Of a stretch of DNA of 64,000 nt, positions 4,310 to 6,240 are shown in pieces. A program made the translations under genes and the position numbers. The first letter of the stretch is position 1, and each line of letters starts with the position of its first letter. Under the pieces are notes generated by a model, which saw only the letters and a list, made by a program, of their open reading frames with translations, was not told the origin of the DNA and did not search any database. This DNA comes from Longimicrobiales bacterium (lineage in GTDB: Bacteria; Gemmatimonadota; Gemmatimonadetes; Longimicrobiales; Gaopeijiaceae): positions 160,001 through 224,000 of the forward strand of contig CBDCNQ010000004.1 in NCBI GenBank assembly GCA_965219445.1, read 5' to 3'.

Positions 4310-4882
4310 ATGACAGAAACGCTCGAGGTGGCCATCTTCGCGGACGAATCTTGTCTAGGGAACCAGTTCCAAGGACAGGCCAACCCCGGTGGCGCAGCCG
4401 GAATGCTGGAGTACTGGACCGGGGACCGGTGGGTACGTCGAGATTATTGGATATCGGAGCCGGACACGACCAACAACCGCATGGCCCTTCGTAGTGCTAT
4501 CGTGGGACTGGGGCTGCTCCGCAAGGGCCCCTGTGACGTTCGGTTCGTGTCGGACAGCCAGTACCTGGTCAAGGGCATGAAAGAATGGGTCGAAAGATGG
4601 AAGGCTCGAGACTGGACACGGAAGGGCGGCAAAATCGAGAACCTGGAGCTCTGGAAGGAGTTGGATCGGGCGAGGGATAGGCATCACGTCGAATGGACCT
4701 GGGTGCGAGGCCACGCGGAGCATCCCCAGAACGAATACGTTGATCACCTCGCCACGAGAGCCGCAAAGGATGGTACCTCCTCCGACGGACTGATCGAGAG
4801 CGGGTTCAGCGCTTGGCTGGAAGAACAGCGAAATCGGCGCGGCCGGTACGGCGATTTTGGGGAGCTCGCACCACCAGGCTAA
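4310..4882 (+). CDS. rnhA: Ribonuclease HI
   Basis: TTNNRM, SDSQY, WVRGH..HPQNEYVD; start placed at ATG 4310. Confidence 0.9.
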   Translation: MTETLEVAIFADESCLGNQFQGQANPGGAAGMLEYWTGDRWVRRDYWISEPDTTNNRMALRSAIVGLGLLRKGPCDVRFVSDSQYLVKGMKEWVERWKARDWTRKGGKIENLELWKELDRARDRHHVEWTWVRGHAEHPQNEYVDHLATRAAKDGTSSDGLIESGFSAWLEEQRNRRGRYGDFGELAPPG

Positions 4883-4898
4883 TCTCGGGAGCCTAGGT

Positions 4899-4941
4899 AA
4901 AAAAAGAAGCCCCCGACACGGCAAGCCGCCTCGAGGGCTTC
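4899..4941 (-). terminator. Rho-independent terminator (minus strand; may also serve rnhA)
   Basis: GAAGCCC...GGGCTTC stem followed by a T7 run on minus strand. Confidence 0.8.
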
Positions 4942-5246
4942 AGTTTCGTTGGTAGAAGCTTCGTCGTGCCTGGACGCCCACCTGACCTCCGGTTTACCTC
5001 GCGGCTCACCTTCCTTCAGGTAGCTAACTCAGCCTCCCTTTTAACCCGATCTCGCGTGATAGCGATCCTGAGTCCTCCGAGCTCCGGAGGGTACGACGGA
5101 GACCAACGACTCTTCCATCGGCTCACCGAGTTCCAATTCCTCGGCAAGCTTCCACCGCTGCGACGTCTCGCCCGGTAGATCACGTTTCGCGAATCGACCG
5201 AAGGGATGACCAACGCCATCGAATCAGCGAACCACATCGGAAACGC
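4899..5246 (-). ncRNA. Candidate structured non-coding RNA, family not recognised
   Basis: Own promoter and terminator, no credible ORF, many nested helices (see findings). Confidence 0.6.
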
Positions 5247-5252
5247 ACCACC

Positions 5253-5281
5253 AGTATGGTGAGCCCGAGGACACCCGTCAA
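5253..5281 (-). promoter_or_regulatory. Putative sigma70 promoter of candidate ncRNA
   Basis: TTGACG (5281-5276)-17 nt-CATACT (5258-5253), AT-rich tract upstream. Confidence 0.65.
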
Positions 5282-5532
5282 GCTTAGAAATCAGAAATCA
5301 ATTCGTTTATTTGATTACGATGTATATCATTACAATATATAATGTTATACAATTTTATTAAAGTATTTTCTATGTCTTGTCATATCTTCAGAAACAGATT
5401 GTTTCGAGGGGGATGTGCGAGGAAAAACACGGACTCCCGGGTGGAGCATTTTGGAAAAAATCGGGAGACTGGAGACACCGACCGCGCCCTGATGGGGTGT
5501 CTATTTGTTGGCCCGCCAACATGGATCAGGGG

Positions 5533-6240
5533 TCAGAAAACGGGTTTCGGCCGTCGGGGAACGACAGGCTCGGGCTTCGGCCCGCCGGAGATGGAGCGGC
5601 CGAAGATTTCCGAGAAGGCCTCAGAAACGATCCCCAGGATGTCGCTGACATCAACCGGCCTCCCCAGCTCCTGGCTAACAGACGTTACCGACACATTCTG
5701 GATGCCACATGGGACGATCGTATCAAAATAGGAGAGATCGTTCGACACGTTCAGCGCGAATCCGTGAGACGAGATCCAACCACTCGATACTCGCACCCCG
5801 ATGGCGGCGATCTTTCGACCGTCCACCCACACGCCCGTGAGATCAGGGACGGGCTCCCCTCGTATGCCGATCTGGTCGAGTGTGTGTACCAGCACCGCCT
5901 CTAGGTCTCGCAAATACCGGTGAACGTCCTTCCGGCCCGGCTTCAGATCGAGGATCGGATACGCCACGAGTTGTCCGGGTCCATGGTAGGTGACGTCGCC
6001 CCCCCGCCCTACGTCGAAGAGATCGATTCCGAGGTCCCGGCGGCTCGATTCGTCGGCGAGAACGTGTGAGCGCGAGGATGCTGTGCCCAGGGTGATGACG
6101 TGGGGATGTTGGAGGAGTAACAGCTGATCCGGTATATCGCCGGTTCGCCGGCGCACGACCAGGTCCGATTGTAGGGCCAGCGCCTCTGAATACGGAATCA
6201 AACCCAGATCCCGTACCTCTAGCGCTGTCGCGTCATTCAT
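5533..6240 (-). CDS. lipB: Octanoyltransferase LipB
   Basis: RGGDVTYHGPGQLV.YP, KIAAIG, HGFALN, IVPCGI. Confidence 0.96.
   Translation of the reverse strand: MNDATALEVRDLGLIPYSEALALQSDLVVRRRTGDIPDQLLLLQHPHVITLGTASSRSHVLADESSRRDLGIDLFDVGRGGDVTYHGPGQLVAYPILDLKPGRKDVHRYLRDLEAVLVHTLDQIGIRGEPVPDLTGVWVDGRKIAAIGVRVSSGWISSHGFALNVSNDLSYFDTIVPCGIQNVSVTSVSQELGRPVDVSDILGIVSEAFSEIFGRSISGGPKPEPVVPRRPKPVF

Follow-up and report, generated by a model that had tools for sequence, protein, structure and literature searches.

We conclude that the minus strand of positions 4899-5281 of the window (the whole 64,000-nucleotide stretch of Longimicrobiales DNA analysed here) virtually certainly carries a genuine gene for a non-coding RNA. 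With a probability of about 0.52, this is an independent "ornate" RNA, whose hairpins are locked by four contacts and which associates with itself, without protein, through the palindromic loop L5. The predicted fold, deduced by sequence comparison, is a series of eight hairpins (P1-P8) tied by four long-range contacts (A-D), while a nested multi-junction fold is unsupported. Covariation, the conserved positions of promoter and terminator, the variable neighbours and the contigs from RNA libraries all argue for a stand-alone structured RNA.

The RNA is about 350 nt long (~5247-4899), its start presumably lying near 5247. It is preceded by a sigma70-type promoter (5281-5253) with TTGACG at 5281-5276 and CATACT at 5258-5253 spaced by 17 nt, and it ends with P8, an intrinsic terminator (4941-4899) made of a hairpin at 4941-4906 and seven U residues at 4905-4899. 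These signals, pointed out in a preliminary description of the locus as the bounds of a minus-strand unit, are both present in the sequence. Promoter-like sites number three in 2.6 kb compared to 0.8 expected, TTGACG-17-CATACT being one of the three; a TTG(A/C/T)-17/18-TA..T-like spacing recurs at the same position across 18 aligned homologs, where the terminator position is also conserved. The folding z-score is -4.57, none of 100 shuffles folding equally well. Only short shadow ORFs of 70 and 73 aa overlie the RNA, in agreement with the earlier statement that no credible ORF exists there. The upstream neighbour on the same strand is lipB (5533-6240, minus strand; NCBIfam TIGR00214), and the downstream one is the convergent rnhA (4310-4882, plus strand), which scored below the cut-off of NCBIfam PRK00203 (142 vs. 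160 bits), with a Pfam RNase_H match obtained on a homolog.

The segment 5290-5400 directly upstream of the promoter is very AT-rich in a genome of 63% GC, and this AT-richness is kept in the same-genus homologs. At a matching distance upstream of the RNA promoter, relatives bear a putative IHF-site-like motif; the tract together with the motif suggests a regulated, bent promoter. Two inverted repeats between lipB and the promoter (5506-5521 and 5391-5405) are conserved across the family, the first becoming a near-perfect palindrome in distant genera, and are candidate regulator sites or a lipB terminator.

The RNA is present in RNA libraries. Parts of the stretch were found in 17 of the 24 listed RNA runs, and the transcript check proposed in the preliminary description returned contigs over the element from four RNA runs of four studies; these runs were chosen for holding the stretch, and strand, ends and level are unreadable from them. 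Two contigs from the sponge run X1 are identical to the window (4955-5089 and 5060-5228), and the listed contig pieces lie between 4932 and 5228, with loose ends at 5238. The summed contig depth over the RNA bins amounts to between ~1,000 and 1.2 million vs. 0-126 in the flanks, which is no measure of level because relatives are pooled and the runs preselected. Taken together, the libraries hint only weakly at a transcript that is discrete and abundant.

The hairpins are supported by compensatory changes among homologs. In an alignment of 37 sequences, 32 of the 35 pairs in P2-P6 show a two-sided change and 92.8% of the cells are paired, compared to 36-52% with slid partners; this alignment was fitted to the model and hence leans toward the structure. 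The long 5′ hairpin P1 (5246-5182) contains a bulge GUGGU (5235-5231), the 5′ strand of contact A; its apical hairpin (5220-5205) is nearly invariant in the window's family-level group and absent from short forms, the apical helix being 100% paired in 16 rows with one two-sided change. P2 (5179-5151) bears a GACG tetraloop (5167-5164) and is 95% paired, with two-sided changes in 9 of 10 pairs; it is optional and missing in Longimicrobium forms. P3 (5149-5121) and P4 (5120-5094) expose the loops UUGGA (5136-5132) and CGUUGG (5108-5103), the 5′ strands of contacts B and C, respectively. P5 (5090-5074) presents the palindrome GAGCUC (5084-5079), a predicted symmetric intermolecular kissing loop, and the two-part hairpin P6 (5073-5044) carries the loop AUCAC (5060-5056), which pairs with the P1 bulge. 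The P7 domain (5038-4954) comprises a closing helix, an arm (5023-5016/4985-4978) with a GCGA loop, and the 3′ strand of contact B; the arm loop GCGAG (5002-4998) serves as the 5′ strand of contact D.

The preliminary description had proposed a nested set of helices, all of whose complementarities are present in the window sequence. The local hairpins 5074-5090 (P5) and 5126-5144 (P3) are kept in homologs, and the helix 4978-4985/5016-5023 is kept in close relatives and only there. The long helices proposed to be nested, three in number (5146-5156/4951-4961, of whose 11 pairs 7 could be counted, 5091-5098/4962-4969 and 5068-5073/5027-5032), are not conserved: 46% of the cells are paired in 39 homologs vs. 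46.2% in the control slid by +1. Competing with the covarying helices and pseudoknots, these three were rejected. What survives of the proposed "multi-junction ncRNA or ribozyme" is a stand-alone, structured RNA outside Rfam; its nested multi-junction form does not, and nothing specific for a ribozyme was seen. The covariation check on homologs, suggested at the same time, revealed compensatory changes in both the hairpins and the four long-range contacts.

Across homologs, the RNA ranges from 250 to 400 nt. Longimicrobium copies start at P3, lacking P1 and P2, and have lost the partner strand in L6 as well; from these short forms we therefore delimit a core of ~190 nt consisting of P3-P7 with contacts B and C. 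In the minimal copy L243, which spans about 1488-1712, a simple scan missed the promoter and terminator, both of which are readable in the similar L239. A divergent form (L081, L212, L213, L215, L227 and others) has a longer, different 5′ domain and no L5 palindrome; it is flanked by genes for chorismate mutase and a sodium:solute symporter, in the vicinity of rplU-rpmA.

All four contacts were measured on plain MAFFT alignments. Contact A (L1-L6) joins L1 or the P1 bulge with L6, in the window GUGGU of the bulge with AUCAC; it is 87% paired in the 29 short-P1 rows, with two-sided changes in 4 of 5 pairs, and 95% paired in the 16 long-P1 rows that include the window. Contact B (L3-J7) unites the loop of P3 with UCCAG (4974-4970), a strand inside P7, and is 84% paired in 39 rows, where the central pair is CG in 24 and GC in 11. 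Contact C (L4-3′ tail), formed by the loop of P4 and CCAACG (4952-4947), is the most conserved element, being 98.3% paired in 39 rows with a third pair that is CG in 34 and UA in 4. Since 16 of the 39 rows came via a pattern fixing L3, L4 and the tail, the variation in B and C stems from the other rows. Judged by these alignments, contacts A-C are very probably real.

Contact D would connect the P7 arm loop with CUUGC (4925-4921) at the apex of the terminator. In 26 homologs with a simple P7, selected for the short P7 arm, it is 91.5% paired with 23 compensated cells; on the mixed 39-row alignment the value is 76%, and in 10 close relatives of the window 98%, with no two-sided change. Because a GNRA-type loop meets a CUUG loop there without two-sided change, contact D may be a relic in the window; comparison of homologs still makes its presence in the window's species fairly probable. 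Six homologs (L013, L015-L018 and L020) possess an extra hairpin domain of ~50 nt between the 3′ tail and the terminator, and by eye it is the loop of this hairpin, not the terminator loop, that is complementary to the P7 arm loop.

As contact D links the core and the terminator loop, the RNA might be viewed as a cis-acting riboswitch or attenuator, in which a ligand, by altering the fold of the core, would act on the terminator via this contact, and some copies do have a same-strand gene just downstream, namely thrC at five loci and a gene for an AMP-binding enzyme at six. However, the gene that follows is convergent at 15 of the 19 lipB-linked loci, the window included, as well as in other lineages, the same-strand neighbours share no common pathway, no anti-terminator was seen, and in the six homologs mentioned above the partner in contact D sits in a separate hairpin ahead of the terminator. 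We consider such cis-regulation very improbable. The convergent downstream gene, the differing neighbours and the tandem copies with their own signals indicate instead that the independent RNA proposed here would act in trans.

Loop L5 joins none of the contacts A-D. By eye, 24 of the 36 readable rows have a self-complementary 4-mer there, which is AGCU (within GAGCUC in the window), GGCC, GAUC, AAUU or UCGA; one row with an N was excluded. With the window's genus counted once, the palindrome occurs in 16 of 28 rows vs. ~7.7 expected, the latter being a hand estimate based on 1/16 per loop window. UGCA and GUAC were further encountered in the short-P1 alignment, giving seven 4-mers overall. 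A set of 46 metagenome rows was picked without regard to L5, by taking one of the 66 copies for each distinct model score; by eye, 42 of them have a palindrome, and these 46 rows represent few independent events since they fall into about three clades. In this set two adjacent columns co-vary, AU in 26 rows and GC in 8, with 93.4% paired and none of 500 shuffles doing as well. Adjacent bases within one chain are unable to pair, and the AU/GC switch in neighbouring columns thus points to pairing between molecules.

From a GGCC/GAUC/AGCU switch, Kretsch et al. deduced bridges between molecules of OLE and of GOLLD, and they noted that the contacts of ROOL and GOLLD first found by covariation turned out to be intermolecular (PMC12286853). 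We predict from the alignments that palindrome switching in L5 is likewise the signature of a symmetric intermolecular kissing loop, and a homo-oligomeric state of the RNA seems reasonably likely on the same comparative grounds. The palindrome is missing in 12 of the 36 rows, in the divergent g44 form and in three Steroidobacteraceae copies, so that dimerisation via L5 is not universal. Alternatively, palindromes located at the tip of a hairpin might reflect a stem extension or a DNA-level repeat.

The rows without a palindrome, a third of the total, would be accounted for if the RNA were a monomeric scaffold or decoy of a ribonucleoprotein, with proteins binding the invariant L2, L4 and apical P1, and with L5 palindromes being incidental. 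The conserved unpaired letters, namely the GACG loop, the bases 5′ of contact C and the nearly invariant P1 tip, also fit protein recognition. Yet no protein gene accompanies the RNA in the 60 loci examined, Ro60 (TROVE domain) was found in none of five carriers, and CsrA in none of four Gemmatimonadota carriers (it is present in the single Gammaproteobacterium carrier examined). Moreover, the RNA persists after transfer to a Gammaproteobacterium with only a LysM gene and thrC adjoining, and the switching among seven palindromic 4-mers is left to explain. This makes the ribonucleoprotein possible, albeit rather unlikely. The invariant bases are concentrated in L3, in L4 and in the 3′ tail; the shortest forms keep only the compact ~190-nt double-pseudoknot core, just as one might expect of a trans-acting ribozyme that has its active site at the junction of contacts B and C and cleaves, ligates or modifies a substrate. 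Against it, no ribozyme model of Rfam matched the locus or seven homolog loci, self-cleavage is unneeded given the own promoter and terminator, and no segment varies like a guide or substrate-pairing stretch, so catalysis appears improbable. Self-association of an ornate RNA through L5 remains our preferred explanation.

The RNA belongs to no family of Rfam 15. No family reached the gathering score anywhere in the window; at E<=10 over 4800-5550 nothing fell on the RNA, two weak plus-strand matches lying upstream of it, and at E<=1 there were no matches in seven diverse homolog loci, so that the Rfam check suggested in the preliminary description ended without a known family at any of these levels. 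That description also denied the RNA the terminal signatures of RNase P and tmRNA. Elsewhere in the same genome lie separate genes for RNase P (272 bits) and tmRNA (178 bits, tag ANNELALAA), along with a small SRP RNA scoring 39.8 bits against a cut-off of 40. Two long irregular hairpins, mutually similar and below the Rfam 6S cut-off (G000:C5:1274195-1274400 and L064:1495-1690, minus strand), are likely 6S RNAs of Gemmatimonadota. A diverged housekeeping RNA (tmRNA, RNase P, SRP, 6S, Y RNA or CsrB) would be in keeping with a size close to that of tmRNA and RNase P and with the fact that Rfam 6S exceeds its cut-off in 0 of 61 relatives. Nevertheless, RNase P, tmRNA, SRP and a 6S-like hairpin are all separately present in the genome, and neither Ro60 nor CsrA was found in the Gemmatimonadota carriers tested. 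We rejected these identities as largely refuted and extremely improbable. A role as 6S replacement was dismissed as well: no anti-correlation can be read because 6S over the cut-off is absent from all 61 relatives, carriers or not, and the zapA-rny gap is too short for 6S. An array of 17 tRNA genes occupies 2.4 kb at G000:C3:31920-34298; the window itself has no tRNA genes.

Among 61 related genomes, 19 gave BLAST matches to the element, of which 18 were real (G000 counted), always just downstream of lipB; the match in G041 (L019) was unsupported. Among 28 further lipB loci in the order, three had a shorter RNA copy, and 11 had lipB within ~150 bases of rnhA, without the RNA. A covariance model of P2-P6 (R1, R2) run on 151 genomes of the phylum matched 23, of which 21 were real by eye, a lower bound because divergent forms score only 22-42 bits; the weak matches L082, L083, L085, L087, L089, L214 and L216 looked like coding DNA. 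The counts of 11 in 28 and 21 in 151 do not support the earlier assignment of the RNA to the core genome, and copies in Steroidobacteraceae speak against its being lineage-specific. A pattern scan of named genomes yielded at least 115 loci, 50 of them chance matches; among the matches listed, 65 pass the covariance model (59 titled Gemmatimonadota, 5 Steroidobacteraceae and 1 a "Gammaproteobacteria" record), including all the listed loci titled as Gemmatimonadota groups. On this distribution, the organism of the window would itself belong to Gemmatimonadota. In a metagenome scan, 66 of 69 copies were real. Two other loose pattern scans gave mostly chance matches; in one of them, with 120 loci, 80 were tested and none was real.

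The presence of the RNA is patchy over Gemmatimonadota and its gene contexts are many. The lipB-linked RNA is single-copy and syntenic across whole families, and outside the window's lineage the neighbours are unrelated genes, often convergent. One locus contains two tandem copies, each with its own promoter and terminator, and two apparently genuine copies occupy separate sites in G250. A second, divergent lipB-RNA-rnhA locus (L020, G010:C235) resides on a 2.6-kb contig of a genome with 6% contamination and is probably a mis-binned contig rather than a paralog. The copy L011:1500-1713 (G011) is devoid of the promoter and of the 5′ half up to loop L4, owing to a deletion or an assembly artefact. 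In one family (L042, L044, L051, L058, L060, L062), pairs of small antitoxin-like and PIN-like genes, as labelled by reading frame, replace the RNA 3′ of lipB, indicating that accessory genes can settle there.

In all five gammaproteobacterial copies for which long flanks exist, the RNA lies between a LysM gene and the gene for threonine synthase (thrC), in that order. The Steroidobacteraceae LysM gene occurs in 30 of 31 genomes of the family, and only a short domain match was obtained in 2 of 5 Gemmatimonadota; judging from this distribution, the gene is native to the family and the RNA copy occupies a native chromosomal site. The RNA itself was detected in 2 of 151 Steroidobacteraceae genomes and was absent from all nine other LysM loci tested; in the nearest RNA-less locus, the next gene, presumably dprA-like, follows the LysM gene directly. 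One horizontal transfer is the simplest reading of the Steroidobacteraceae copies. Such a transfer between phyla, together with the patchy presence, the many sites, and the tandem and paralogous copies, might suggest an RNA that is left over or domesticated from a mobile element (omega-RNA, intron, plasmid or phage RNA) and spreads selfishly. This is highly unlikely given the single, syntenic copy across whole families and the flanking proteins, none of which, among those scanned, is a transposase, nuclease or reverse transcriptase. Besides, the 192 viral loci tested gave one truncated match, on a 1.8-kb contig that is probably host DNA, and two queries against 72,556 plasmids gave none.

By architecture, the closest known RNA is ARRPOF (RF02933) from a Fusobacterium plasmid, described as a 255-nt RNA with consecutive P1-P8, four pseudoknots and a self-complementary intermolecular helix that forms homodimers (PMC12990946; PMC5737381). 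Covariation gives the same numbers of hairpins and contacts here, and the dimer is in our case a prediction. The 5′ end-L6 contact resembles contact A and is the only one with similar connectivity, whereas the J4/5-L7 contact of ARRPOF has no counterpart in the RNA studied here, which is chromosomal, found off plasmids, and in other phyla. The ARRPOF model had no match at E<=10 in any of four carrier genomes.

In OLE, the loop L9.3, which bridges the dimer, is reported to alternate between GGCC, GAUC and AGCU (PMC12286853). Both OLE and our RNA would be large trans-acting RNAs with a palindrome-switching loop (L9.3 and L5, respectively), although L5 does not have it in all members. OLE differs in being ~600 nt long, confined to Bacillota, multi-junction and provided with known protein partners, while no Rfam match was obtained here, and the OapA family was not among the flanking proteins scanned. 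With ROOL and GOLLD, the RNA shares covarying "tertiary" contacts, which in those RNAs are intermolecular kissing loops of protein-free cages, and with GOLLD an optional 5′ part and a conserved 3′ core. In contrast, ROOL and GOLLD are 580 to >800 nt long and come from phages or prophages near tRNA arrays, and our RNA, at 250-400 nt, hardly occurs in viral contigs. The raiA RNA (RF03072) is another stand-alone pseudoknotted RNA with optional peripheral stems; it is described as 200-300 nt long, abundant at the entry into stationary phase and acting in trans (PMC10861870). It differs by having two pseudoknots, P1-P6, the comFC-raiA context and hosts among Bacillota and Actinomycetota, as opposed to four contacts, eight hairpins and lipB/rnhA or other neighbours; in four carrier genomes, its model gave weak matches elsewhere only, none at the RNA locus. 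The RNA would work like the ornate self-assembling RNAs and is a member of no such known family.

We found no published description of the RNA in the literature, where paper supplements may list it as an unnamed motif. The string "Gemmat" occurs zero times in the main text of PMC11109978 and PMC5737381, and equally in that of 10.64898/2026.10.21.760802, 10.64898/2026.09.15.751765 and 10.64898/2026.07.01.735769; the 1.5 million motif clusters of 10.64898/2026.10.21.760802 could include it.

We envisage that the transcript made from its own promoter and terminator would be stable, compactly folded and active in trans. Its functional unit would be the ~190-nt core, made of P3-P7 and held by contacts B and C; P1/P2 and contact A would be a removable brace, and contact D would dock the 3′ terminator hairpin on the fold and protect the 3′ end. 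The L5 palindrome would pair with that of a second copy, yielding a dimer or a larger symmetric particle, and some of contacts A-D may form in trans, between chains. In the cell, the RNA might serve as an abundant trans-acting scaffold or sequestering particle during slow growth or stress; such a role, proposed by analogy to raiA and OLE, is tentative. Still bolder, and doubtful at present, is an abundant, chromosomally encoded RNA-only machine, in which ~190-nt cores would be arranged head to tail via one or more contacts. L5 dimers would close such an assembly, which would include the terminator, into a cage or ring, and the particle would be self-sufficient enough to pass between phyla as a lone gene.

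Classes of ornate large bacterial RNAs are few, and each of those solved (OLE, ROOL, GOLLD, ARRPOF, raiA) has yielded a new fold. The family described here is compact enough for direct cryo-EM and offers natural minimal (~190-nt core) and extended variants, and its dimer interface is predicted from sequence alone and could be tested by palindrome swaps. The host phylum is widespread in soil and sea, and the RNA is chromosomal and seen in environmental RNA libraries. It may allow one to test cleanly whether oligomers made of RNA alone serve a purpose in cells outside the context of phages.
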